DNA of 64,000 nt from an uncultured Candidatus Saccharibacteria bacterium (GTDB taxonomy: Bacteria > Patescibacteriota > Doudnabacteria > UBA920), in contig CAZHIA010000005.1 in assembly GCA_964532425.1 (NCBI GenBank), forward strand, positions 66,772-130,771, in the 5' to 3' direction. Positions 4,930 through 60,288 of this stretch are shown here, in pieces (position 1 is the first letter of the stretch; each line of letters begins with the position of its first letter). Below the pieces are notes generated by a model, which saw only the letters and a list, made by a program, of their open reading frames with translations, ran no database searches and was not told where the DNA came from. The translations under genes were made by a program, and so were the position numbers.

Positions 4930-6108
4930 CTACCTTAACTCCGCTTGATAGGTTTCCGCAGTCTGTTTGTACAGCTCATTTTGCAATGGCTCAACTTCTT
5001 CTGCCGTGAGAGTTCGTTCCGGGCTGCGGTAAATGACCCGGTAGGTGTAGCTCATACGGTCAGGTCCGAATTTGCCATCGTTTTCGTATTTATCAAGAAG
5101 CTCTACCTGTTCGACCAGGTCACCGCCTATGTGGCGGATGAGGTCAAAATAGTTATTGGGCACGAAGTCCTTTTTTACGATGAACGAAATGTCGCGAATT
5201 ACTGGCGGGAATTTGCTGACCTCGACGAATTTCTTGCCCATGTGCAGCTGTTTGGTCACCCGAGGGTCCTCACTCCAGAGCAGGCGGATATCCGGCAGAC
5301 TCATGCTGACTATGGCCAGGCGCTCCAGGCCAAAACCGAATGCCCACCCCGTGTAATTGGAAGAATCGACGCCAAGTTTTTCCAAGACTGATCCCTTGAC
5401 CACGCCGCAGCCGACGACTTCGACCCAATTGCCTTCTATTTCTACTTCCATTTCCAGGGAAGGGTCTGTATACGGGAACGTGTCGGGATTGAGACGGTAT
5501 TTTACCTCAGGCCCGAAAACAGCTTTGGCAATGGCTCCCAGAGCCTCTTCCAGGTCCTGTTGGCCCATGGTCTTCATGGCTTTCGGCACTAGGTACCAGC
5601 CATCAATTTGATGGAAGACATTCATGTGCTTGCGGTCTATTTCATCCTTGCGATAGACTTTGCCGAAACTGAACGAACCGACGGGTTGATTGTCCGCCAT
5701 GCGCTGTTTGACTGCTTCGTTCTGCAGATAGTAATACCACATAACGGTCGTGTGCGTCCGCAGGATATTGCTGTCGTCGACATAGTAGGTATCGGATTTG
5801 CTGCGTGCCGGATGGTCGGCAGGAAAATCGAACAGGTCAAAGCTGATATCAGCCGGAACAATCTCCGGAGTTTTGATAATATCGAGATCCTTAAAGTAGT
5901 CGCTTGCAAGAATCTTTTCGACGATTTCGGCGATAGGGCTGCCCGGGGTGCGCGAAAGATCGGGCATAGCAAGATACCGCCGGATGCGCTGAGCTTCGAA
6001 ATCCGTGCGCTTTTCGAGTTCTATTCTTAAACGCTGTTCCTCTTCCGTTGAAATGATGATTTCTGTTCTCATAAAGTATTCAAATTTACTTAATACATCC
6101 GGCGTCAT
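4930..6108 (-). CDS. pheS: phenylalanine--tRNA ligase alpha subunit
   Basis: Class II aaRS motifs: FPYTDPSLEMEVEI (motif 2 region) and GWAFGFGLERLAIV (motif 3). 392 aa. The alternative internal start MRTEII is at 6072. Confidence 0.9.
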   Translation of the reverse strand: MTPDVLSKFEYFMRTEIIISTEEEQRLRIELEKRTDFEAQRIRRYLAMPDLSRTPGSPIAEIVEKILASDYFKDLDIIKTPEIVPADISFDLFDFPADHPARSKSDTYYVDDSNILRTHTTVMWYYYLQNEAVKQRMADNQPVGSFSFGKVYRKDEIDRKHMNVFHQIDGWYLVPKAMKTMGQQDLEEALGAIAKAVFGPEVKYRLNPDTFPYTDPSLEMEVEIEGNWVEVVGCGVVKGSVLEKLGVDSSNYTGWAFGFGLERLAIVSMSLPDIRLLWSEDPRVTKQLHMGKKFVEVSKFPPVIRDISFIVKKDFVPNNYFDLIRHIGGDLVEQVELLDKYENDGKFGPDRMSYTYRVIYRSPERTLTAEEVEPLQNELYKQTAETYQAELR

Positions 6109-6212
6109 CCTGAACCCGACTGCAGCGGAGAGTGAAGCATCTCTTAAACTACTGGTTTAAGGGATTCTTCGTCACTCGGATGCACTCGCTCCTCAGAATG
6201 ACGCCGGATATG
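6098..6212. mobile_element. Roughly 110-nt palindromic element with terminal inverted repeats (atccggcgtcatcctga ... tcagaatgacgccggat), copy A.
   Basis: Near-perfect 17-bp TIRs. The right half matches the copy at 11217-11330 (40 of 43 nt). Its left TIR overlaps the annotated pheS start codon (ATGACGCCGGAT). Confidence 0.55.
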
Positions 6213-6243
6213 GTAGTATTTTACTTAACTTCACTTATCGCTG

Positions 6244-6699
6244 TCAATTTTGTTCAATCATCCCCGGCTCAAACTGGTTCCCCGGCTTGGTATCTGGTTT
6301 GAGTATCATTATCCCCTTCCCTGGCTCGCTGGAGAGTCCAAGCTCGAAGGCCGCGCAGATCATACCTTGGCTTTCCACACCGCGGATCTTGGCTTTCTCA
6401 AGGACAAACGGCTCATGGGCCTCGCTATGGATGTTCTGCGGGATCTGGGCACCGGGCAGGGCCAGGGCCACCATGTCTCCGACTTCAAAGTTAAAGGCGC
6501 CACAGACAACCGGGTATATTTCTTTTTCACCATCCGTCAATTGAACGACCTGCAGCCGGTCGGCATTGGGATGCTTTTCTATAGCTAAAACTCGGGCTGT
6601 AATAATGCCAGAGTAGTTATTTGTTGGGTTTTTAGCCGGTGTGTTTTTGAATAGTCTTTGAAAAAATGAAAATAATTCCATAAAATTGATAATTAACAA
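6244..6699 (-). CDS. stand-alone tRNA-binding (Myf / EMAP / PheT N-terminal-like) domain protein
   Basis: GIITARVLAIEKHPNADRLQVVQLTDGEKEIYPVVCGAFNFEVGDMVALALPGAQIP...KIRGVESQGMICAAFELGL matches the N-terminal tRNA-binding domain of PheT and CsaA/Trbp111. The rest of pheT is not at this locus. Confidence 0.75.
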   Translation of the reverse strand: MLIINFMELFSFFQRLFKNTPAKNPTNNYSGIITARVLAIEKHPNADRLQVVQLTDGEKEIYPVVCGAFNFEVGDMVALALPGAQIPQNIHSEAHEPFVLEKAKIRGVESQGMICAAFELGLSSEPGKGIMILKPDTKPGNQFEPGMIEQN

Positions 6700-8859: not shown

Positions 8860-11800
8860 TCATTCCAGATACTCAAATTCGCACCGGTGGTCCCTGGCTT
8901 TCTTATGCTCTTCCTTGAACAGGTCGTACTTTGTCGTATATGCGATCCGTTCAACAAGCTCCAAGAGCCGCTGTTTGAGATCGGTAATCTCTTTTTCCGG
9001 CGCGATCTCCTCTTCAATGAACGTATTATCTTGCAAGTACCAGTACTTCAAGCCGACGACGGTTTCTTTCAAGTATTCCTCGGCCGCCCATTGGTAAATA
9101 TAGAGCTGGTCTAAGTCCTTGCTCTTTTTCGGCGTCTGTCCGGTCTTGTAATCCAGGAGAATAATACCGTTTTGCACGCTGTCGGCACGGTCGATTTTAC
9201 CGGTAAATAGATACTCTCCCAGCTTCAGCTGGAAGAACTTCTCGATATATTTTGGCACGAATTTCGCCTGCAGGCTGGTCTCATAGAATGTGCCGAGCAT
9301 TTTCCTACCAAGCACGCGATATTCCTCTTTTTGTTCTTTTGTATCGTACCAGTCATCCACCCAATGCTTTTCATATAGTTCTTCCAGGAATTTCGCCGGG
9401 GGCAGCACCACCTCCGGTTTGCCGCCGAACAAGTCCTGCTGCGGCAGGTCGAGATTGGTTTTGTATAGTTTTAAATACTCTTCGAAAACTTTATGGATGG
9501 TCTGGCCGAAGCTTAAATGGCAGCTGCCGGCTACCGGTAGTTTGAGGTAATGATGATATTTGTATTTGAGCGGACAAGTTTCAAAATCGTTCAGCTGGGA
9601 ATAAGAATACTTGAGCGACGGCACATATATCTGCTTCCCCGGTTGCGCTGCGGGGCGGAACATGACTTTGCCGGTAGCCTGATTTACCCGGTCGCTGGGC
9701 ACCAAGCCGGTCTCGACCAAAAAGCTTGACGGCTTCTTGGCCCGGCTGCCGCCATAGTCCTTGGCCCAGGTCAAATAGAGATAGGTCTTGGCCCGCGTCA
9801 TGGCAACATAAAACAGCCGGCGTTCTTCCTGCAAATGGAAATCCCCTTCCGGAAGGATATCTTTGATCAGGGCTTCCGGAATCTCGATCGGATCGCTTTT
9901 TTCCCGCGTCGGAAACCGCTGGTCTACCATGCTGATGACAAAGACATAGTTGAATTCCAGGCCTTTGGAGCTGTGAACAGTCATGACTTTAACGCTTTCA
10001 GGACCAGCATTCGGATCGAATTTTATTTCACCTTCATTGCCGGCTTCCAGCTCCAAGTCCAGGGTGGCCAAAAAATTATGCATGCTTCGGTCAGTTTCTT
10101 CCTGCCCGAATTCTTCGATCTTTTTGTAGAATTGGTCTACCAGCTCGCGGTTTTCGGCGTTTTCCAGCGTGTCTTCGGAAATAACCTCTTCGATACCAAT
10201 ATCCTTCACAATACTCACGAACAGCTCAGCTGCATGTATGCGCCGGGCAGCATCGCTATGGGCATGGAGGCAATTAATAAGCCGTTCGATGCTTTTTCGC
10301 GACTCATCGCTGGTTTCCGGGAAGCTTTTCGCGTCTTTTAACGCTTCATAGAGCGTTAAGGCCTTTTTATGCCCGTGGGCTAGAATATGAGCGCGCTCGT
10401 CATGGGGAATGAAAAACTTCGGCAGCGTTAGAACGCGGTAAAGGCTGTGCGAATCATGAAAATTATCGAGCAAGCGGAGATAGGACAGTATATCAACAAT
10501 GATCTGTTTTTTGTATAAACCGCGATTAGCCACGAACGTGTACGGTATATTGCGGCTGCCCAGGACGGGCAGCAGCTCGTCAGCTGATGCGTTTCGCCTG
10601 AGCAGAATAGCAAAATCATTCCAGCTGCAGGAGGGTTCTGAATTCTTCAACTCCATAATCTTATTGGCTACGCAATTCAGTTCCGAACTTAAATCTTGCG
10701 CCTCCAGGACCTCGATAACTCCTTCCTGGGGGATGTTTGCGTGGAGTTTTTTTGACAAGTCTAACTTGGTCTCCAGCCGGTCCGGATTGTTTTTTTGGAT
10801 GAAATCATACGCCAGATCAAGGATATTTTGGCTGCTGCGATAATTTTCGACCAGCGTGATCTCAGACAGTTCCGGGAAATCCTCTTTCAGCTTCAAGATA
10901 TTGGAAACGCTCGCGCCGCGGAATTTGTAAATGGACTGGTCATCGTCGCCAACTACGGTCAAGTTTTGGCGCACCCCAGCCAGCAACTTCACCAATTCGT
11001 ACTGGGCATAGTTCGTATCTTGAAATTCATCGACAAGGATATATTTGAACTTATCCTGATAATATTTGAGAATCTTCGGCCGCTTTTTGAATAATGCCAG
11101 CGTGTAGTTGATAAGGTCGGCAAAATCCAAATAATTGTGGTCGATGAGTAATTTTTGGTAGGTGTGGTACGCACCAGCCAGCTCTTCAATGCGGGCGATC
11201 TCCACAGGATCAACGTCAACCGGCGTCATCCTGACGTTGAGTGCATCCGAAACGGAAGGATCTTTTTTGCTGACCCGAGATTCTTCGCCACTCGGATGCA
11301 CTCGCGACTCAGAATGACGCCTTTTGGAAGGAGGATTGATTTTTGTCTGAGCAGGCTGATCTGTTTGCAATCTAAGACCTTCGGCAAAACTCAAATAGTC
11401 TTCTGGCCCTATAAGTTCGTCCTTGCAGCGGCTGAAGTGAGAGAGCATCGCGTCGATGAACTTGGCAGGATTGCCCAGCGGCCGGTAATAGCTCAATTTA
11501 AATTTAGACAGGTTTTTGTAAACCAGGATCCATTGTCTGGTTGAGTCGAGGAGCGTGAAATCGTTGGGAATGCCGATGTCGAGGGCATGCATTTTTAAAA
11601 TACGCTCGCAAAAACCGTGGAAGGTCGCGATCCATGTGTCGTACGCCCCGATGGGCAACAGCAAGTCCACGCGCTCCTGCATCTCACCGGCCGCTTTTTC
11701 GGTAAACGTTAGGGCGGCTATTTCATCCGGCCGGGCAGCGCCGGTTTCCAGCAAATAGGCTATGCGCCGCGTAATAACGGTTGTTTTTCCGGTGCCTGCT

Positions 11801-11940
11801 CCTGCAACGATAAGTAACGGACCTTCGGCATGTTTAACCGCCGTAAGTTGCTGCTGGTTCAATCCTTCAAATAACCGGTTGTCCGTTGGCAGAGCCTGCT
11901 GTTCGGCAATATTGGGAGTTTTTGTTGCTTGTTTGACCAT
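8860..11940 (-). CDS. UvrD/PcrA-family SF1 helicase with a C-terminal PD-(D/E)xK (AddB/Cas4-like) nuclease domain
   Basis: Motif I LIVAGAGTGKTTVITRR and motif II ILVDEFQDTNYAQYEL. The C-terminal domain has YSYSQLNDFETCPLKYKYHHYLK ... GKIDRADSVQNGIILLDYKTGQ. 1026 aa, including an in-frame roughly 37-aa insertion encoded by repeat copy B. Confidence 0.85.
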   Translation of the reverse strand: MVKQATKTPNIAEQQALPTDNRLFEGLNQQQLTAVKHAEGPLLIVAGAGTGKTTVITRRIAYLLETGAARPDEIAALTFTEKAAGEMQERVDLLLPIGAYDTWIATFHGFCERILKMHALDIGIPNDFTLLDSTRQWILVYKNLSKFKLSYYRPLGNPAKFIDAMLSHFSRCKDELIGPEDYLSFAEGLRLQTDQPAQTKINPPSKRRHSESRVHPSGEESRVSKKDPSVSDALNVRMTPVDVDPVEIARIEELAGAYHTYQKLLIDHNYLDFADLINYTLALFKKRPKILKYYQDKFKYILVDEFQDTNYAQYELVKLLAGVRQNLTVVGDDDQSIYKFRGASVSNILKLKEDFPELSEITLVENYRSSQNILDLAYDFIQKNNPDRLETKLDLSKKLHANIPQEGVIEVLEAQDLSSELNCVANKIMELKNSEPSCSWNDFAILLRRNASADELLPVLGSRNIPYTFVANRGLYKKQIIVDILSYLRLLDNFHDSHSLYRVLTLPKFFIPHDERAHILAHGHKKALTLYEALKDAKSFPETSDESRKSIERLINCLHAHSDAARRIHAAELFVSIVKDIGIEEVISEDTLENAENRELVDQFYKKIEEFGQEETDRSMHNFLATLDLELEAGNEGEIKFDPNAGPESVKVMTVHSSKGLEFNYVFVISMVDQRFPTREKSDPIEIPEALIKDILPEGDFHLQEERRLFYVAMTRAKTYLYLTWAKDYGGSRAKKPSSFLVETGLVPSDRVNQATGKVMFRPAAQPGKQIYVPSLKYSYSQLNDFETCPLKYKYHHYLKLPVAGSCHLSFGQTIHKVFEEYLKLYKTNLDLPQQDLFGGKPEVVLPPAKFLEELYEKHWVDDWYDTKEQKEEYRVLGRKMLGTFYETSLQAKFVPKYIEKFFQLKLGEYLFTGKIDRADSVQNGIILLDYKTGQTPKKSKDLDQLYIYQWAAEEYLKETVVGLKYWYLQDNTFIEEEIAPEKEITDLKQRLLELVERIAYTTKYDLFKEEHKKARDHRCEFEYLE
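11217..11330. mobile_element. Roughly 110-nt TIR palindromic element, copy B, inserted in frame inside the helicase CDS.
   Basis: TIRs ggcgtcatcctga / tcagaatgacgcc, with an internal inverted repeat gagtgcatccga / tcggatgcactc. On the coding strand it encodes KRRHSESRVHPSGEESRVSKKDPSVSDALNVRMTP with no stop. Confidence 0.55.
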
Positions 11941-11975: not shown

Positions 11976-12437
11976 TCAGTGCTTCCCGTTACTGATAAAA
12001 CTCGTCCACTGCTTCCAGAGGTCCTCGCCTTCATCTTTAAAGGAGGACCAGAAAGCCGAAGGGTTGACTATCTTGACCCCTTGAAATTCTTCCAGTTTTA
12101 GCAGGGCATTATCGCTGCTCACCAGAAAGTCCGCCCGTGCTTCCACCGCGCTTTCGAGGATCTTATTGTCTTCGGGATCCTCGACAATGCGAATCTGGCG
12201 GCGATTGACCACCCAGTGGATCTTGGCAAACAGATCATCCAGCTGGTGGCGGTAATCATCATTGTCGATGAGCTGGGAAGCTATAAGTTTATTCTCCTGC
12301 AGGGTCTGGCGATTCGCGTAGGCCTCTATCTCTCCTGCCAGCACCGCATCGATGATCTTCTTTTCGTATGAGTAGTCGTCTTTAAAGCCGTTAATGAGAA
12401 CGTTGGTATCCAGGACTATCTTGGTAACATTTGACAT
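11976..12437 (-). CDS. PIN-domain protein (VapC-like putative ribonuclease)
   Basis: IVLDTNVLINGF ... DPEDNKILESAVEARADFLVSSD gives the PIN acidic residue pattern. The start codon lies inside a heptamer repeat block (MSNV = atg tca aat gtt). Confidence 0.8.
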   Translation of the reverse strand: MSNVTKIVLDTNVLINGFKDDYSYEKKIIDAVLAGEIEAYANRQTLQENKLIASQLIDNDDYRHQLDDLFAKIHWVVNRRQIRIVEDPEDNKILESAVEARADFLVSSDNALLKLEEFQGVKIVNPSAFWSSFKDEGEDLWKQWTSFISNGKH

Positions 12438-12457
12438 GTGACATTTGACCTTTGACC
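12426..12457. repeat. Heptamer repeat block (tttgaca, tgtgaca, tttgacc, tttgacc), left flank of the 4HB gene.
   Basis: 7-nt periodic TTTGAC units between the 4HB stop and the PIN start. Confidence 0.6.
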
Positions 12458-12465
12458 GCTTCCGA

Positions 12466-12852: not shown

Positions 12853-12885
12853 GTCAAATGTTAAAGGTTAATGGTCAAATGTTAT
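12853..12885. repeat. Heptamer repeat block in the opposite orientation (gtcaaat, gttaaag, gttaatg, gtcaaat), right flank of the 4HB gene.
   Basis: It abuts the 4HB ATG (aacatttgacATG on the coding strand). There is no SD. Confidence 0.6.
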
Positions 12886-23853: not shown

Positions 23854-24306
23854 TTATTCGGAGAGTACGCCTTCGCCCGTAATTGGCGTTCTGCGGTGAG
23901 CATGTTTGCGAGCTACATTGAGACGCATCAGGCTGTGTTCCAGACTGGCAGCAACCTTGGCGTACTCTTCAGCAGTTAAGGTTTCCTCTGCCATTGCCTT
24001 GCGTGCCCGCTCACGAGCAGCTTCGGCAGCATTGAGGTCTATCTCGAAATGATGTTCAGCCGCGTCTGCGAGAACAACAACTTCGCCGCCTTCGCGAATC
24101 TCGACAAAACCGCCGGCCACATAAATATAATAATCATCTTGCTCCGACTTGGCGTGAAGCTCTCCAGGGATGAGGTTCGCCACGAGCGGGATGTGACCGG
24201 GAAGAACGGTAATCTGACCCAGAGATGTCGGGCAGCTTAAACTGCTCAGCTCCTGGGAAAGTACCGTCCGCTCGGGAGTTACTAATTGGAAATGGAATGT
24301 TTTCAT
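23854..24306 (-). CDS. atpC: ATP synthase F1 epsilon subunit
   Basis: MKTFHFQLVTPERTVLSQELSSLSCPTSLGQITVLPGHIPLVANLIPGEL. Start chosen at the ATG at 24306. The track start at 24345 is a TTG lying inside a heptamer repeat block. Confidence 0.8.
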   Translation of the reverse strand: MKTFHFQLVTPERTVLSQELSSLSCPTSLGQITVLPGHIPLVANLIPGELHAKSEQDDYYIYVAGGFVEIREGGEVVVLADAAEHHFEIDLNAAEAARERARKAMAEETLTAEEYAKVAASLEHSLMRLNVARKHAHRRTPITGEGVLSE

Positions 24307-24312
24307 ATTCTG

Positions 24313-24400
24313 GACATTTAACATTTGACCATTGACCTTTGACAAATCATTGTCATTTTTGATTCTAAAATGGTCACATGTTACCTGTTAAAGGTCAAAT
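24313..24400. repeat. Heptamer (TTTGAC / TTTAAC / ATTGAC) repeat blocks in inverted arrangement in the atpD-atpC spacer.
   Basis: Left half in one orientation and right half in the other, giving a composite imperfect palindrome. Confidence 0.6.
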
Positions 24401-24401
24401 G

Positions 24402-25799
<1,398 letters not shown>

Positions 25800-29993: not shown

Positions 29994-30046
29994 CTATTTG
30001 TGAGGGAGTTTAAAGTCCCGTTGAGCGAAAAAATAATTATTATGAT

Positions 30047-30117
30047 GTCAACATTTGACACCTGACTTTTGACATTTGACCGAAAGGCCACATGTCAATG
30101 GTCAAAGGTTAAATGTT
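30047..30117. repeat. Heptamer TTTGAC-family composite palindrome in the atpB-atpE spacer.
   Basis: catttgac, ttttgac, atttgac on the left. gtcaatg, gtcaaag, ttaaatg on the right. Confidence 0.6.
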
Positions 30118-30126
30118 TGCAATTTG

Positions 30127-48068: not shown

Positions 48069-48150
48069 ACATTTAACCTTTAACCATTAACATGTAACAA
48101 ATCCGCATTGTCCGAGTGTCTAGGTCAAATGTCAAATGTCACATGTCAAA
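48069..48150. repeat. Heptamer TTTAAC/TTTGAC-family composite palindrome between the DUF4012 gene and ftsW.
   Basis: catttaac, ctttaac, cattaac on the left. gtcaaat, gtcaaat, gtcacat, gtcaaat on the right. Confidence 0.6.
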
Positions 48151-48155
48151 TGTTT

Positions 48156-49295
48156 CTATAAGTTTGACTGCCGTGAAATATTCAGCAGAATACCTACGCC
48201 GGCCATGGATGCAATGAGGGCTGTGCTCCCGTAGCTGAAAAATGGCAGCGGAATACCGGTGAGCGGCAGCAGATTTACCATAGCGCCTATGTTGATGACA
48301 GCCTGGAATCCGATGTACGCGACAATACCAACTGCAATCATTTTGCCGAAACCATCCGGCGCGTTTTTGGCAATTTTGATTCCCCGCAGGACAAACGCGA
48401 CAAATAATAGGATCAGTATGGTCACTCGGAAGAAACCCAATTCCTCGGCCATAATGGCAAAAATAGAATCCGTGGTCGTTTCGGGGAGATAGTTATATTT
48501 TTGGCGAGAGAGGCCGTAGCCATACCCCCATAAACCGCCGGAACCGATAGCTAAAAGCGCCTGGTTTATCTGGTAGCTGATCCCTTTGGGATCGATAGCC
48601 GGGTTTAAAAATGTCGTAATCCGGCGCGCTCGGTAGGGCTCAAATTTAATAAATGCCGCGAGCGCCAGCACCCCGGTGACAATAGTCCAAAAAAAATACC
48701 GCAAATTAATGCCACCGACGAACAACATGACCATGGAAGTAACGATAAGCACGATCATGGTACCCAAGTCCGGCTGCCATAAAATGAAAGCCGCAAAGAG
48801 CCCAATAATCAACAGCGATGGCAGAACGCCGAAATAAAAGTCATTCATGGCATGTTTTTTCCGGTCCGCCCAGGCTGCCAGGTATAAGATAATGACAAGT
48901 TTTGCGAATTCGCCCGGCTGCACCGAAATAAAACCCAGGTCGAGCCAGCGGACAGCACCCCCGGCCGAATATCCCATGCCTGGCATTTTGACGAGCACCA
49001 GACTGACCAGGGAAACAATAATCAGTCCCGGAAGCAGCTTGAGCCAAATGTGATAATCCAAACGGCTGCAAATATACAAAGCCACAGCTCCAACGAGTCC
49101 ACCATAGACTGCCTGATGGATGATATAATACGTAATCGTGCCGTGATCCTTATATGACTGGACCGTAGATGCGGAGAAGAGCACCATAAACCCGTACACC
49201 AGCAGCGCCAGGGTAATAAGCAGCACCGGTAAATCAATTTTTCCGTTTTTTGCTTTTTTCATTTCAGGAAGATTATGTAACCTCGAATATACCAA
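48156..49295 (-). CDS. ftsW: SEDS-family peptidoglycan glycosyltransferase FtsW/RodA
   Basis: 10-TM SEDS topology. Alternative start MKKAKNGKIDLP at 49262. Confidence 0.85.
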   Translation of the reverse strand: MVYSRLHNLPEMKKAKNGKIDLPVLLITLALLVYGFMVLFSASTVQSYKDHGTITYYIIHQAVYGGLVGAVALYICSRLDYHIWLKLLPGLIIVSLVSLVLVKMPGMGYSAGGAVRWLDLGFISVQPGEFAKLVIILYLAAWADRKKHAMNDFYFGVLPSLLIIGLFAAFILWQPDLGTMIVLIVTSMVMLFVGGINLRYFFWTIVTGVLALAAFIKFEPYRARRITTFLNPAIDPKGISYQINQALLAIGSGGLWGYGYGLSRQKYNYLPETTTDSIFAIMAEELGFFRVTILILLFVAFVLRGIKIAKNAPDGFGKMIAVGIVAYIGFQAVINIGAMVNLLPLTGIPLPFFSYGSTALIASMAGVGILLNISRQSNL

Positions 49296-49317: not shown

Positions 49318-50727
49318 TCAGGAACGCGATAAATTCTTTACTAGTTCTTTAAAGCGTTCTCCCCTGTCTTTGTAATTTTTAAACATGCCGAAACTTGCGC
49401 ATGCGGGCGACAGCAGTACAACATCACCTGCTGTAGCAACAGAACGGGCTTGCCCGAGAATTTCTTCCATGGATGCAGCACCGGTCAGTACTTGCCCGTT
49501 AAATCCTCTTCCTTGTCCAAGCACTTCCCTGATCCGTTCAGCTTCCTGCCCTATGAGAATAACAGCTTTGATATTATGCGCCGAACGAATGACCTGTCCG
49601 AGCTCGGTAAAGTCGCTATGTTTGGTTGACCCCCCTAAAATAATAATCTCTGGTTCAGTAAAAGCTTTTATAGCGGCAATGGCTGTCTCAGGAACTGTAG
49701 AAAAAGAATCATTGTAGTATGCAACGCCTTCGTGGGCGCCAACCGGCTCAAGCCGATGTTCCAGCCCGGCAAAACTCTTAAGGACATCAGCCACCGCTTC
49801 CGGTTCGATGTCTAAGGCACCCGCTGCCGCGACCGCTGCGCAGACGTTCTCAAGATTATGACGCCCCTTCAGCTTAAGTTCATTGCATGGAAAGGAAAAA
49901 ATCCGTGGGAAGATTCCGACTGCGACCATTTGGTCCTGTTCGATAAAGCATCCCTCCCGCAGCTGTTCATGCGTGCTCACAGAAAGTTTCTTGTGAGCCT
50001 GCCCCATTTCACCAATGAGCCTGGTGGCGGGGTAGTCGATATTATAAATGGAAACATCTTCTCGCTTTTGATAGACCGTAAGCGAGCTTTTGGCAGCATG
50101 GTATTCGCGAATATGCCTATGTTGATCAAGATGCTCCTGGGTGACCATGAGACAAACCGCGATGTGAGGGCTTTTGTGCAGATCCTGAAGCTGGAAACTA
50201 GAAAGCTCGAATACCACTATATCGCGCTCCGTCATGTCATCCAAAAATTCGAACGGCTGGATCTTGCCGATGTTGCCGGTCAGGAACATTTGACCTTTGA
50301 CATTTGACCATTGACCATTCAACTTCAACATTTCATAAATAAGAGTGCTGGTGGTTCCCTTGCCTTTCGTGCCGGTCACTCCGACAATCTTACCCGGGCA
50401 GTGGTCAAAGAACCATTTGGTCTGGCTCGTGATTTTCAACCCCTTGTGTTCGGCCGCTAACAGATCAGGGTGCAGCCGCCATAGTCCCGGACTACGGAAG
50501 GCCGCGTGAAAGCCGGTAAGTTCTTTCAGACAGTCCGGACCGAAGATAAAATTGAGGTTGAGCGCTTTTATTTTTTCTTGTTCTTCCGGCGCCCATTGTT
50601 CCCACGGGCGCTGGTCAAAAAGCACGGGGGTAATGCCGTGCTTGAGCAAATATTCGGTAACAGCCTGCCCTTCGCGTCCAAAACCCAATACCGCGGTGAG
50701 TTTTTGATCCAAATCTTTGAGTTCCAT
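49318..50727 (-). CDS. murD: UDP-N-acetylmuramoyl-L-alanine--D-glutamate ligase
   Basis: Start at the ATG at 50727 (MELKDLDQKLTAVLGFGREGQAV). GVTGTKGKGTT is the Mur ligase P-loop. The track ORF extends further upstream through an overlap. Confidence 0.85.
   Translation of the reverse strand: MELKDLDQKLTAVLGFGREGQAVTEYLLKHGITPVLFDQRPWEQWAPEEQEKIKALNLNFIFGPDCLKELTGFHAAFRSPGLWRLHPDLLAAEHKGLKITSQTKWFFDHCPGKIVGVTGTKGKGTTSTLIYEMLKLNGQWSNVKGQMFLTGNIGKIQPFEFLDDMTERDIVVFELSSFQLQDLHKSPHIAVCLMVTQEHLDQHRHIREYHAAKSSLTVYQKREDVSIYNIDYPATRLIGEMGQAHKKLSVSTHEQLREGCFIEQDQMVAVGIFPRIFSFPCNELKLKGRHNLENVCAAVAAAGALDIEPEAVADVLKSFAGLEHRLEPVGAHEGVAYYNDSFSTVPETAIAAIKAFTEPEIIILGGSTKHSDFTELGQVIRSAHNIKAVILIGQEAERIREVLGQGRGFNGQVLTGAASMEEILGQARSVATAGDVVLLSPACASFGMFKNYKDRGERFKELVKNLSRS
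50286..50325. repeat. Heptamer TTTGAC block inside murD.
   Basis: On the coding strand tggtcaa atgtcaa aggtcaa is 21 nt. It adds WSNVKGQ between the conserved EMLK..G and GNIG. Confidence 0.6.
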
Positions 50728-58892: not shown

Positions 58893-58955
58893 AACATTTG
58901 ACATTTGACTTTCTGCGACCCAAGTCAAAGGTTAATGGTCAAACGTCAAATGTTG
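58893..58955. repeat. Heptamer TTTGAC-family composite palindrome between the TM protein and the ATPase gene.
   Basis: acatttgacatttgact ... gtcaaaggttaatggtcaaacgtcaaatgtt. Confidence 0.6.
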
Positions 58956-58959
58956 CCTT

Positions 58960-60288
58960 CTAAAAGTCTTCCGATACCGGCAAATTAATCGGCGCTGAGG
59001 CTTTCTTGCTCTCAGTCCGTTCGATAGGCACCGCAGCTGCGGTCGTCGAAATCGGGAAATGGTACAATGTAGCCAATTCCTCAACATTCATGACGAACAT
59101 GGGATTGCCAATATGCACATCACGGTTCTTATAGCCTTTAAACATCATAACCTTGCGGCGTTTTTCTTCCCATTCGATATACGGTTTTTCCAGCGTCGGG
59201 GAAATATGATATTCAAGGCTGGTCCAGGTCAGCTTAGTATCCGGCTTGAACGTGTTGGTATTGGCAGAGCCCAAAGGCCGGTACGAGCCGATGACCACGG
59301 ACTTCTTAGACCCGTCATATTTGTCCTTAGGCGCAATATATAAGTGGCGGATCTTAGTCCTGTATCCCGGTTTGCCAATTTTTCGCTGAATGAGATTGAC
59401 GCGCTCCTTCTCCATGTCAGTCATGCTTTGCCAGTTGTTCTTGGGGCCTTTTTCATCATGGCCATGACCATGACCGCCTCCTAAAAGGGCATCCTTAAAG
59501 CTAAAGTTCGCAAATGCGTTAAGCGGTGCAAGGAAAAAGTCACTCCAAGAAGCCTCATGCGCCACCGCTTCGCCAATCAACTCCTTCACCTTTGACTCCC
59601 CTTTCGGCTGCCATTCATTATCGCCAAGCGGTTGTATGATGATTTGCACCCCGTAAAATTCATGCGGACCGATCTTGGACAGTGCCTCAAAATGCGAGGC
59701 AAGAGGATCGATAACCTTTTCTTCCGCTACCGGATGCTCAAAATCTTTATATGTTTTGATAGGTATTACGTCGTCGGCCAATAGCTTATATTCGCAGCCC
59801 CAAATGTCAAAACTGCTGGTTTCTGGATCATAATTGATATTCTCCATGTAATCTTCAACCTGGGTAATTTCCGCCGTCGGATATTGCGCATAAAATGCTG
59901 CCTCGACCAGGTCCCTGGTCTTTTTTGGGCACATGATTAAAAACGAGATCTTGCCGCCCATGCTGATGATCTCCAGGCTGTACCAAAGTTGGTCCTTGCC
60001 TTCCACATATTTTTGAGCGAATGTTATCCCGGTATGGAGCGCGTGCATCTGGGCGAAAATCGATTCTACCGCGAGTGTACTGACCAAATTTTCTTTCGGA
60101 ACTTTGATGTTCAAGAAAATCCATTCCTGGCTATGAATGAACTGGTGCTGAATCTCTCCCATATACAGCCAGAACAGGATCCGAACAGTTACGAGAACGA
60201 CCAAAACCCAGCCTCCATACAAGAAAAAAGAGGCTGTCGTTCTCAGCAGATCCCCAACATTTGGGAAAATTCCCTGGAAAATATCCAT
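58960..60288 (-). CDS. hypothetical membrane protein (442 aa, N-terminal TM)
   Basis: TM FFLYGGWVLVVLVTVRILFWLYM. Its end is 114 nt upstream of the coupling-ATPase-like gene, co-oriented. Confidence 0.55.
   Translation of the reverse strand: MDIFQGIFPNVGDLLRTTASFFLYGGWVLVVLVTVRILFWLYMGEIQHQFIHSQEWIFLNIKVPKENLVSTLAVESIFAQMHALHTGITFAQKYVEGKDQLWYSLEIISMGGKISFLIMCPKKTRDLVEAAFYAQYPTAEITQVEDYMENINYDPETSSFDIWGCEYKLLADDVIPIKTYKDFEHPVAEEKVIDPLASHFEALSKIGPHEFYGVQIIIQPLGDNEWQPKGESKVKELIGEAVAHEASWSDFFLAPLNAFANFSFKDALLGGGHGHGHDEKGPKNNWQSMTDMEKERVNLIQRKIGKPGYRTKIRHLYIAPKDKYDGSKKSVVIGSYRPLGSANTNTFKPDTKLTWTSLEYHISPTLEKPYIEWEEKRRKVMMFKGYKNRDVHIGNPMFVMNVEELATLYHFPISTTAAAVPIERTESKKASAPINLPVSEDF

Follow-up and report, generated by a model that had tools for sequence, protein, structure and literature searches.

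A probable CGTC-tagged REP dimer lying in frame within a UvrD-type helicase gene of a Doudnabacteria-type member of the Patescibacteria

The closest described relatives of the element reported here are the CGTC-tagged REPs, a superfamily for which Di Nocera, De Gregorio and Rocco described the families CGTC-1 to CGTC-4 (2013, BMC Genomics 14:522, PMC3733652). In the part of that article drawn on here, two repeats of Rickettsia conorii are assigned to the superfamily, RPE-4 to CGTC-4 and RPE-6 to CGTC-1, the Neisseria repeat dRS3 is placed in CGTC-1, and the CGTC REPs are presented as having no associated transposase (PMC3733652). Catalogues of GTAG and CGTC REPs include intragenic copies from many species; genes for DNA replication and repair account for many of these, and R. 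palustris and K. olearia are already listed, in the portion of this literature used here, with copies in their UvrD/REP helicases. A sequence-only reading of the present locus had held that a dispersed palindrome in frame within an essential gene is not commonly described outside the Rickettsia lineage; this view is out of date. No publication linking REP or RPE-type elements to Patescibacteria was found in the literature searched, and a search with the terminus sequences returned unrelated primer matches only.

The window, which is the whole 64-kb stretch of DNA that was analysed, contains two copies of a palindrome of 100–105 nt, one within a helicase ORF (copy B) and one in an intergenic spacer (copy A). 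The coordinates of the copies, their units and their surroundings are collected in Table 1. The palindrome is a real feature. Its terminal inverted repeats are exact (GGCGTCATCCTGA at 11222–11234 on the plus strand and GGCGTCATTCTGA at 11309–11321 on the minus strand), copy A carries the same terminal pair at 6101–6113 and 6193–6205, and the internal inverted repeat is present as had been described (gagtgcatccga at 11239–11250 and tcggatgcactc at 11292–11303). The right halves of the two copies, 6163–6205 and 11279–11321, are identical at 40 of 43 positions, which confirms the second copy. Both copies fold far more stably than shuffled sequence, at −52.9 to −57.4 kcal/mol (z −6.8 to −8.7), and none of 200 shuffles equalled them. 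Taken alone, the 13-mer (≤2 mismatches) matches the window five times against 2.5 expected, which is not significant; it is the paired arrangement, the second copy and the more than 116 loci elsewhere with both termini that argue against chance. One could suppose that the palindrome is coincidental within an ordinary ancestral linker, the linker being of low complexity and variable in all orthologs, or that it is an assembly artefact. This supposition deserves virtually no credence. It is refuted by the match of the DNA to the intergenic copy 5 kb away and to more than 120 copies in other genomes, by the folding z-scores down to −8.7, and by the independent Logan assembly SRR11567520, which encodes an identical 1026-aa helicase.

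Table 1. Positions of the two dimers and of neighbouring features in the window
Feature	Position	Strand	Details
Helicase gene, 1026-aa UvrD-type helicase with fused PD-(D/E)XK nuclease domain, host of copy B	8860..11940	-	PF00580, PF13361, PF12705
Hypervariable helicase linker, predicted disordered, residues 199-241, holds the element	11218..11346	-	pLDDT and ortholog alignment
Copy B, CGTC-tagged REP-like units in head-to-head dimer	11222..11321		Inside helicase ORF
Unit B1, 'C-type'	11222..11264	+	GG CGTC ATCCT GA CGTT GAGTGCATCCGA AACG GA AGGAT CTT
B1/B2 spacer, A/T-rich	11265..11276		TTTTGCTGACCC; spacers differ from copy to copy
Unit B2, 'T-type'	11277..11321	-	GG CGTC ATTCT GA GTCGC GAGTGCATCCGA GTGGC GA AGAAT CTC
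Copy A, head-to-head dimer in tRNA_bind ORF/pheS spacer	6101..6205		Units 6101-6143 (+) and 6161-6205 (-)
tRNA_bind ORF, upstream of copy A	6244..6699	-	PF01588
pheS ORF	4930..6108	-	PF01409, PF03147
Promoter-like site TTGACA, 18 nt, TAAAAT (11/12)	6218..6247	-	Consensus match only; just upstream of copy A, gene strand

A covariance model of the unit found exactly four units in the window, all belonging to the two dimers; additional or degenerate copies were not detected. Unit B2 scored 70.8 bits in cmsearch (E 7.6e-13) and forms standard pairs at all modelled positions; unit B1, which is included as a row in alignment A3, scored 49.3 bits (E 2e-08). The plus-strand unit of copy A is partly decayed, with AGGAT replaced by AGCAT. 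At the Rfam gathering thresholds, the window yielded four tRNAs only and no family for the element.

Each unit folds as an independent hairpin, maintained through compensatory changes. Its consensus can be written 5'-GG CGTC | AT(C/T)CT GA N4-5 GA (G/A)TGCATC(C/T) GA N4-5' GA AG(G/A)AT | CTC, in which the CGTC tag is unpaired and is followed by an irregular hairpin that has two tandem G.A steps in its stem, the latter opening with A-T and T-A. All 36 distinct aligned units, and likewise the four units of the window, have GGCGTC without exception; the first two stem pairs, 7-42 (A-U) and 8-41 (U-A), are just as constant, in 21 of 21 units and again in 15 of 15 in A3. Standard pairs fill 95.7% and 99.3% of the cells of the unit structure in two alignments, against 25–55% in partner-slid controls; changes on both sides were seen at 6 of 11 and 6 of 10 pairs, respectively, with a covariation score that 0 of 500 shuffles reached. 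The arms match internally (ATCCT with AGGAT, ATTCT with AGAAT) in 85/85 left and 78/80 right arms, and the arms within one dimer are often of different types; pairing as one long rod would leave a C.A mismatch and a G.T wobble in 45 heterodimers. Both window copies, and most model matches in 53 loci, are facing plus/minus pairs, and since the two units are set facing one another on either side of a short A/T-rich spacer, the whole element resembles a long palindrome with 13-nt "TIRs". The 3-nt tail is CTC (102 units), CTG, CTT or similar in Patescibacteria and Terriglobia, and CCA in 41 units, mainly from Sphingomonas.

This architecture bears on what kind of element is present. If the element were a classical MITE, it would derive from an insertion sequence by deletion and would be moved by cut-and-paste through a DDE transposase recognising the 13-nt terminal inverted repeats. 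Its length of about 100 nt would suit this, and exact 13-nt inverted termini are found in many copies and lineages. However, what is conserved is the whole hairpin of an arm rather than just the terminus, different arm types combine freely, and target-site duplications were not above chance among 123 copies (four of 2 nt, 7.7 expected; two of 3 nt, 1.9 expected; none of 4 or 5 nt). No longer copy with GGCGTCATYCTGA termini was found in a scan of spans up to 600 nt, and no transposase gene in the loci. A MITE is therefore very improbable. The description of the element as a palindrome with terminal inverted repeats stands with regard to the exact inverted termini but fails in the sense of a TIR-bounded MITE, as the arms are separate hairpins and target sites are not duplicated. 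The element is very likely a member of the CGTC-tagged superfamily, namely, a non-autonomous, REPIN-like head-to-head dimer of REP-type units. It is placed outside the four described families because the stem and loop of the window units do not have the 8–9 bp and 4–5 nt of those families; as it falls in a described superfamily, the Patescibacteria would add a host lineage to a type of element that is already known.

The helicase orthologs are named Candidatus Doudnabacteria or Patescibacteria. The claim that the element leaves the reading frame intact holds, as the ORF continues through it as ...KRRHSESRVHPSGEESRVSKKDPSVSDALNVRMTP..., and its location was also given correctly: it follows motif Ia (TFTEKAA, residues 78–84) and precedes motif II (DEFQD, residues 304–308). 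Copy B is translated on the minus strand as residues ~207–240 (RRHSESRVHPSGEESRVSKKDPSVSDALNVRMTP), and the helicase peptides encoded across the copy include HSESRVHPSGEESR. The pLDDT is below 50 throughout the linker, which lies between helices at residues 179–192 and 245–267 whose 10-residue blocks average 88 and 92–94. In the ortholog alignment, the length of the linker at the element site ranges from almost nil to long; it is nearly absent in orthologs P0012 to P0014. The segment is missing from many helicase orthologs and many other copies of the element exist, so that neither of the two outcomes named in the sequence-only reading as refuting it was obtained. Removal at the RNA level by intron-like excision was rejected as unlikely, given that copies, intact or decayed, remain open and in phase.

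Copy A lies in a different setting. The longest reading of pheS takes its ATG start from the element terminus (..TCAGGATGACGCC..), which makes a genuine start further downstream probable. If the predicted promoter upstream of the copy is real, copy A would lie within the pheS leader.

The search for the terminus revealed many copies elsewhere, beyond the two of the window. A scan for both 13-nt termini 55–85 nt apart, for which ~0.1 chance loci were estimated, retrieved the above-mentioned loci (>116) from Patescibacteria, Terriglobia, Sphingomonas, Bradyrhizobium and Hymenobacter. Within the Patescibacteria, members of the family are scattered through the Doudnabacteria and further lineages, and copy number differs among related genomes. 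In low-GC Patescibacteria loci, 14 of 56 copies (about a quarter) lie in frame, besides the window helicase, in a screen that counted ORFs with Pfam-confirmed domains on both sides of or around the copy and that is blind to copies that split a gene. The hosts are MnmA (two copies), LeuRS, TatD, CarA, Lgt, GT1 (two), Mur ligase (two), YchF, Wzy_C (two) and DUF6580. This fraction is far under the coding density of ~90% (binomial p 4e-30). Frames containing a terminal TGA are used by none of the intragenic copies, and lengths of 2 modulo 3 are enriched among them (8/14 vs 10/42, p 0.04), which is weak evidence consistent with frame filtering; the element length modulo 3 gives no single true boundary. 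Intragenic copies are not claimed for the high-GC genomes of Sphingomonas and Terriglobia, where the ORFs inspected (loci L044, L075, L085, L011 and L079) are mostly spurious or lie upstream of the real domain. Matches of the Hymenobacter copy to the plant miRNA families MIR1858, MIR1437 and MIR868 passed E-value thresholds, stayed below gathering scores and were rejected as homology; the MIR1437 alignment reflects long hairpins in general, its posterior probabilities being near 0.5.

Several insertions are shared between genomes. The exact GGCGTCATTCTGA occurs at the helicase site, in the same frame and orientation, in orthologs P0063, P0044 and P0095, and ortholog P0002 carries a decayed copy there. 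Insertions in Mur ligase and MnmA also recur in different genomes, as does the copy in the tRNA_bind-pheS spacer. Synonymous sites are near saturation between genomes with shared copies. Third-position identity was 0.57–0.75 in the Mur ligase element and the helicase elements of P0063 and P0044, against 0.37–0.48 in the rest of the gene; the corresponding values were 0.48 and 0.35 for the P0095 helicase and 0.44 and 0.45 for MnmA. Such excess nucleotide conservation could reflect a cis function instead of a selfish element.

It might thus be proposed that the element is mainly a functional cis-acting structure under host selection, such as a hairpin for RNA stability, processing or translation pausing or a DNA site for a host protein, and that the helicase copy modulates gene expression, which would be compatible with a mobile origin. 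The persistence of copies at the same positions in the helicase, Mur ligase, MnmA and the tRNA_bind-pheS spacer despite near-saturated synonymous sites supports this proposal, and so does the conservation of the element, which in Mur ligase and in two of the three helicase comparisons exceeds that of adjacent third positions. The strong promoter-like site (a consensus match) just upstream of copy A and a weak orientation bias among intragenic copies (T-type arm first in 11/14, p 0.06) point the same way. The compensatory changes that preserve the unit hairpin also agree with it, but they are expected equally of a single-stranded DNA transposase substrate. Moreover, the host genes are functionally unrelated, decayed copies stay in frame (P0002, P0044), many helicase orthologs have no copy, copy number varies among related genomes, and no Rfam family matches. 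Host selection as the main explanation is therefore improbable.

The shared helicase site raises a further sub-question, that is, whether the copies in different Doudnabacteria derive from a single ancient insertion with vertical inheritance, which our preferred explanation assumes, or from independent insertions into a hot spot. The distribution favours a hot spot, as the element is absent from the closest orthologs, P0003 to P0014 (64–67% identity), and present with an exact 13-nt terminus in the more distant P0044, P0063 and P0095 (57–61%), the inner module of the P0095 copy being different. Insertion flanks are also biased, the 5' side being pyrimidine-rich and G-poor and the 3' side purine-rich. 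Against this, no specific target motif was found in the flanks of the copies, codon phase and orientation are alike in all four, their states of decay are graded, and the shared-site pattern recurs at three other loci. Independent insertion is a minority reading that we consider rather unlikely.

The best within-genome copy pairs are 86–92% identical, so there is no sign of recent transposition. Neither empty sites nor polymorphic insertions were seen among the examined loci. It is conceivable, though doubtful, that the CGTC-REP dimers of Doudnabacteria-type Patescibacteria are long-lived residents of coding sequences and not transient junk. In favour of this, the codon positions occupied in helicase, Mur ligase and MnmA are the same in different genomes, and in the helicase and Mur ligase copies the termini and hairpins are better preserved than third codon positions around them. 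If this were true, long-lived residency would imply ongoing sequence-specific maintenance, either through concerted evolution or through re-copying by a CGTC-specific enzyme, and the 13-nt terminus shared by Terriglobia, Sphingomonas, Bradyrhizobium and Hymenobacter would imply one widespread enzyme or inter-phylum exchange. Genomes of ~1 Mb and ~1000 genes with dozens of copies would then offer the smallest search space yet for that enzyme.

Taken as a whole, the likely explanation is a REPIN-like CGTC-REP dimer that would have spread as single-stranded DNA and is tolerated in frame. The element would spread as single-stranded hairpin DNA, cut beside the CGTC tag in trans by an HUH/Y1 (RAYT-like) enzyme or by some other enzyme, and would integrate without target duplication. 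In a genome that is ~90% coding, most insertions would strike genes and disappear. The survivors would be those that avoid the terminal TGA frames, contain no internal stop, keep the downstream frame and sit in a tolerant loop. From such filtering, we infer that the helicase insert is a neutral or nearly neutral translated surface loop of 34 residues and not a functional module. The RAYT-like step is put forward tentatively, at a little under an even chance. Bertels and Rainey linked the Neisseria repeat ATTCCCGCGCAGGCGGGAATC, which by our own identification is dRS3, to a Group 2 RAYT. When the IS200/IS605 TnpA profile and E. coli TnpA-REP were compared with all stop-to-stop frames in 970 kb around 123 copies, covering the window and 121 loci, one partial Y1 match was obtained, 2.2 kb from a Terriglobales copy and not adjacent to it, and none in Patescibacteria; the 20 scanned ORFs of the 64-kb window also contained no Y1 transposase.

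A repeat superfamily known mainly from Alphaproteobacteria, including RPE-4 and RPE-6 of Rickettsia, now reaches the Candidate Phyla Radiation. The reduced genomes of Patescibacteria, like those of Rickettsia, tolerate palindromes in essential genes (helicase, LeuRS, MnmA, Mur ligase, Lgt, YchF and others). In-frame copies give CPR proteins lineage-specific insertions and also lead to artefacts when those proteins are annotated and aligned. Tiny element-rich genomes also provide a practical comparative route to the enzyme that mobilises CGTC REPs.

The window element shares with the CGTC REPs the unpaired terminal CGTC, complementary A/T at stem positions 1 and 2, a 3-nt tail, an arrangement mainly as head-to-head dimers with spacers of 10–30 nt, and the lack of an adjoining transposase gene. 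Like them, it occurs in frame, often in DNA repair genes, giving peptides of the type VIx/RHx ... xMT/xxDA. The peptides of the copies studied here (RHS/RHP and GVIL at one end, RMT/GMT and QDDA at the other; VIP, RHP, GMT and RGND in the catalogue) share frames with the published intragenic CGTC peptides (RHSELVSGS, VIP...GMT, ...RGND). The differences lie mostly inside the unit. The families described in the part of the source used here have stems of 8–9 bp and loops of 4–5 nt, which the window units do not, whereas a window unit consists of a 5-bp stem, a tandem G.A, a variable stem of 4–5 bp, a second G.A, one covarying pair and a 6-nt loop (TGCATC), with 24–26 nt extra between ATYCT and AGRAT. 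In place of the published tail consensus CCA, the window units end in CTC or CTT, the intragenic share of ~25% looks high, and Patescibacteria are not among the hosts named in that part of the source (Proteobacteria, Cyanobacteria, Planctomycetes, Thermotogae, Verrucomicrobia and Acidobacteria). The Sphingomonas copies from the same terminus scan are canonical (CGTC ATCCTGAA CTCGT TTCAGGAT CCA) and satisfy the published stem and loop definition.

REPINs, the repeats moved by RAYTs (Bertels and Rainey; Nunvar et al.), likewise join two inverted REP hairpins into one hairpin of ~100 nt, without target duplication; they turn over slowly, persist by vertical descent at orthologous sites and have diversified rather than identical copies. 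Classical REPINs differ in having a GTAG tag and a cognate single-copy RAYT flanked by REPs, whereas CGTC is the tag here and the window and loci searched yielded no RAYT. A REP is normally confined to one lineage, but the present 13-nt terminus recurs across several phyla. The dRS3 (NIME) repeats of Neisseria have the same plan, CGTC followed by ATTCCC...GGGAAT, but their units are 20 nt long and form mostly large intergenic clusters, and in-frame genic copies of them are not known. The RPEs are also dispersed palindromes that persist in frame in housekeeping genes of a reduced genome. The peptides of RPE-4 and RPE-6 (VIPAKAGI, ...AFTGMT, SRFRGND) match the same terminus, CGTCATYC; the phylum and the inner sequence differ, and RPE-1, the classical protein-coding RPE of ~100–150 nt, is a separate family. 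The Rickettsia elements are linked to it indirectly, by the assignment published for RPE-4 and RPE-6 and by comparison of peptides and termini. With the CGTC tag, the stem starting with AT, the head-to-head dimer plan and dispersed copies in frame in a housekeeping gene, the RPE-like character proposed by the sequence-only reading is supported, and the resemblance appears to go beyond mere analogy.

The element is a pair of hairpin units in inverted orientation, and one of its two copies in the window (copy B) lies within a helicase gene. The sequence-only reading had proposed a palindromic element with inverted termini at this site, and this was borne out by the terminus pair GGCGTCATCCTGA / GGCGTCATTCTGA. 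The same pair bounds copy A, between the tRNA_bind ORF and pheS, and the 40 of 43 identities claimed for the right halves of the two copies were recovered. The 1026-aa helicase ORF (8860..11940, minus strand) is open through copy B, whose translation, KRRHSESRVHPSGEESRVSKKDPSVSDALNVRMTP, falls between motifs Ia and II of the helicase, in frame ahead of motif II as had been claimed. An identical protein is encoded by an independent Logan assembly. Predicted folding agreed as well, with −52.9 to −57.4 kcal/mol (z −6.8 to −8.7) for each strand of both copies. Run on the 64-kb window, a covariance model built for the unit found the four units of the two dimers and no further unit. A promoter-like site with 11 of 12 consensus matches is located directly upstream of copy A, and the longest pheS ORF begins at an ATG contributed by the element terminus. 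On sequence grounds, copy A may be part of the pheS leader, and the pheS start as annotated may be an artefact that the repeat has introduced.

Coordinates of repeat features (window positions unless a locus is named)
Feature	Position	Strand	Basis
Left terminus of copy B, GGCGTCATCCTGA	11222-11234	+	sequence match
Right terminus of copy B, GGCGTCATTCTGA, near-complement of GGCGTCATCCTGA	11309-11321	-	sequence match
Terminus pair of copy A, same GGCGTCATCCTGA / GGCGTCATTCTGA	6101-6113 and 6193-6205		sequence match
Promoter-like site upstream of copy A	6247-6218	-	
ATG of longest pheS ORF	6108		
Second helicase dimer of ortholog P0095	L121 1190-1290		
tRNA_bind-pheS spacer dimer of L121	L121 5877-6005		
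Terriglobia-type copy, Actinomycetota-labelled MAG	L046 1468-1578		
Dimer-bearing palindrome, Hymenobacter actinosclerus	L031 2465-2651		
TTTGAC-like hexamer arrays	2907-2952, 12417-12458, 12853-12885, 24304-24405, 30041-30119, 48069-48157, 50276-50331, 58894-58960		
Hexamer pair flanking the 23S_rRNA_IVP ORF	12425-12456 / 12853-12884		
Repeat-like peptide site	L049 4637-5908		
Repeat-like peptide site; LeuRS hosting a CGTC dimer	L059 2187-5372	-	
Repeat-like peptide sites	helicase orthologs P0042 and P0045		

The arm structure was read from 123 copies among the matches listed. The conserved part is not the long palindrome but the arm GG-CGTC-AT(C/T)CT-GA-(variable stem and loop)-GA-AG(G/A)AT-CTC, and each element consists of two such arms, inverted, on either side of a variable spacer. 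All 85 left arms and 78 of the 80 right arms combine ATCCT with AGGAT (C-type) or ATTCT with AGAAT (T-type). Because the two arms of Patescibacteria elements are mostly of unlike type among the matches listed, pairing as a long rod would entail both a C.A mismatch and a G.T wobble. The arm hairpin was written as a structure and scored on two ungapped alignments of distinct units, A2 (n = 21) and A3 (n = 15). Standard pairs filled 95.7% and 99.3% of the cells, respectively, compared with 29–55% and 25–53% when the partner was slid as a control. Six of 11 and 6 of 10 pairs were changed on both sides, and the covariation score was reached by 0 of 500 shuffles in each alignment. From these pairing, control and covariation counts, each arm is therefore its own hairpin. 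It includes two tandem G.A steps, and the inner modules are of many interchangeable kinds. The 5′ flank of each unit is G-poor and pyrimidine-rich, and position −1 is a pyrimidine in 51 of 55 oriented copies. No target-site duplication was found around the 123 copies; because of this, and of the modular hairpin arms, a MITE of the DDE type is a very improbable account of the element.

The element is widely dispersed. When one genome per species was scanned for both termini 55–85 nt apart, at least 116 stretches were returned, compared with about 0.1 estimated by chance. The matches listed include MAGs labelled Candidatus Doudnabacteria, Saccharibacteria or Patescibacteria group, Terriglobia and other Acidobacteriota, at least eight Sphingomonas genomes, one Bradyrhizobium, one Hymenobacter and one MAG labelled Actinomycetota. 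The label of the latter (MFD06526.bin.1.61), which holds a Terriglobia-type copy, may be a binning error and not an extra phylum, since the same-sample Terriglobia bin MFD06526.bin.2.59 also has copies. In Hymenobacter actinosclerus, the CGTC dimer is nested in a ~190-nt palindrome. It matches the plant miRNA families MIR1858, MIR1437 and MIR868 at E-value thresholds, and its scores for MIR1858 and MIR1437 (100–108 bits) are under their gathering scores. Homology to miRNA was rejected, as the alignment to MIR1437 shows a match of the generic kind expected of long hairpins, and its posterior probability is low.

Within genes, copies survive in frame at tolerant sites. Helicase orthologs (55–69% identical to the window protein) were named Candidatus Doudnabacteria or Patescibacteria. 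In their alignment, the linker at the element site ranges from almost nothing (orthologs P0012 to P0014) to tens of residues, so the element segment is not common to all, in keeping with the earlier reading of an insertion. The element encodes residues 207–240; in an AlphaFold2 model with 42 orthologs, pLDDT is below 50 over residues 199–241, and the flanking helices 179–192 and 245–267 are confident (10-residue block means of 88 and 92–94). The exact GGCGTCATTCTGA recurs in P0063, P0044 and P0095 with the codon phase and orientation of the window copy, their right arms having decayed to differing degrees. The closest ortholog, P0002, has a plainly decayed copy with the reading frame kept. A second CGTC dimer is found in P0095 just before motif III (VVGDDDQ).

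Among the matches listed, 14 of 56 copies in low-GC (Patescibacteria) loci lie inside Pfam-confirmed ORFs, the host genes being MnmA (two), LeuRS, TatD, CarA, Lgt, GT1 glycosyltransferase (two), Mur ligase (two), YchF, Wzy_C (two) and DUF6580. Because ORFs cover ~90% of the window, this 25% is a strong deficit (p = 4e-30), consistent with the removal by selection of most insertions into genes. The termini hold TGA in one frame at each end, and every one of these 14 copies is read in other frames. Copies whose length is 2 mod 3 leave two frames open on each strand and are, on weak evidence, enriched among the intragenic ones. Intragenic copies in high-GC genomes were rejected, their ORFs being mostly spurious or upstream of the real domain. 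The T-type arm (CGTCATTCTGA) comes first along translation in 11 of 14 intragenic heterodimers, namely 13 from related loci and copy B (p = 0.06; these are not independent, two pairs being orthologous). In the 1062-aa LeuRS of the MAG ‘Patescibacteria group bacterium AMAZON01’ (L059), which hosts a CGTC dimer, a Ser_hydrolase / alpha-beta hydrolase domain (PF06821, residues 434–616) is inserted after the editing domain, an architecture unusual for LeuRS.

Several sites are shared between genomes. The Mur ligase insertions occupy the same residue position in two genomes, as do those in MnmA (protein identity 71–72%). In L121, the locus encoding P0095, the tRNA_bind–pheS spacer holds a dimer as in the window but in opposite orientation, and both share the rare loop variant GACTGCAxCGGA; the orientation could be due to in-situ inversion of the palindromic element. 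Third-position identity in the element and in the rest of the gene was 0.75 and 0.48 for Mur ligase (L077 / L109) and 0.44 and 0.45 for MnmA (L022 / L049). For the window helicase, it was 0.57 and 0.37 against P0063, 0.62 and 0.38 against P0044, and 0.48 and 0.35 against P0095. That the shared helicase position is a hot spot of independent insertions, instead of one ancient insertion, is considered rather unlikely. Conservation at shared sites, together with the promoter-like site by copy A, hints at a host-selected cis function, but copies occur in unrelated genes, they are retained even when decayed, and many orthologs have none, which leaves such a function improbable. Within one genome, the most similar copies are 86–92% identical, and the median identity among copies is 76–87%. 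The picture given by these sequences is that of an old copy population with slow turnover, as also pictured for REPINs (inverted REP pairs), and not of a recent burst.

Other repeats were also observed. Arrays of three to five tandem TTTGAC-like hexamers (e.g., AACATTTGACATGTGACATTTGACCTTTGACC) are located at gene junctions, often as inverted pairs, and may represent a second family of repeats or mark the boundary of a cassette. One pair flanks a 128-aa 23S_rRNA_IVP ORF, and at the loci L118, L119 and L120 this slot between NYN and PIN_3 genes is occupied by a small ORF that differs from locus to locus. The peptides TPSPSPKGGGG and PLPNPPLKKGGG recur at N-termini and linkers of Patescibacteria proteins, which suggests another intragenic repeat family.

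The elements would move as single-stranded hairpin DNA, cut next to the CGTC tag by an HUH/Y1 (RAYT-like) enzyme. The Neisseria repeat ATTCCCGCGCAGGCGGGAATC is taken here to be dRS3. It was tied to a Group 2 RAYT by Bertels and Rainey, and by analogy with this repeat and with GTAG REPs, a RAYT-like mobilisation step is a serious, if tentative, possibility. No Y1 domain was found in the 20 window ORFs scanned, and profile and RAYT searches that covered every frame across 970 kb around copies returned a single partial match, not adjacent to a copy, on a Terriglobales contig, and no mobilising enzyme.

In Di Nocera et al. 2013 (PMC3733652), CGTC REPs are characterized by an unpaired CGTC tag, a stem beginning with A and T and a short tail; they mostly form head-to-head dimers with spacers of 20–100 nt and have no associated transposase gene. 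The window element resembles them in tag, stem start, tail and dimer plan, and the search for an enzyme agrees with the lack of a transposase gene. That study places R. conorii RPE-6 and Neisseria dRS3 in CGTC-1 and RPE-4 in CGTC-4, and the RPE-like reading of the element was right in that RPE-4 and RPE-6 belong to the same superfamily. The view that in-frame behaviour is not commonly described outside Rickettsia has to be given up, as in-frame REPs in repair helicases had been reported there: UvrD/REP helicases of R. palustris and K. olearia are among the tabulated host genes. The intragenic peptides of its supplementary table include RHSELVSGS (Sulfurovum), VIPAKAGI...IPAFAGMT and SRFRGND; in the present copies, the terminus is the same and is translated in the same frames, giving RRHSE or GVIL from one end of the element and LRMT or QDDA from the other. 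Sphingomonas copies, retrieved by the window termini, fit the canonical REP described there exactly (CGTC ATCCTGAA CTCGT TTCAGGAT CCA), whereas the window units differ in their tail (CTC or CTT) and by an expanded hairpin (5 bp, GA/GA, 4–5 bp, GA/GA, one covarying pair, 6-nt loop). A literature search found no paper linking REP/RPE-type elements to Patescibacteria, and very small genomes with many CGTC REPs could help to find the enzyme behind the superfamily. By the published description, the window units fall within the CGTC superfamily and outside the four families described; the element adds a new lineage and a structural variant to a superfamily known from earlier work.
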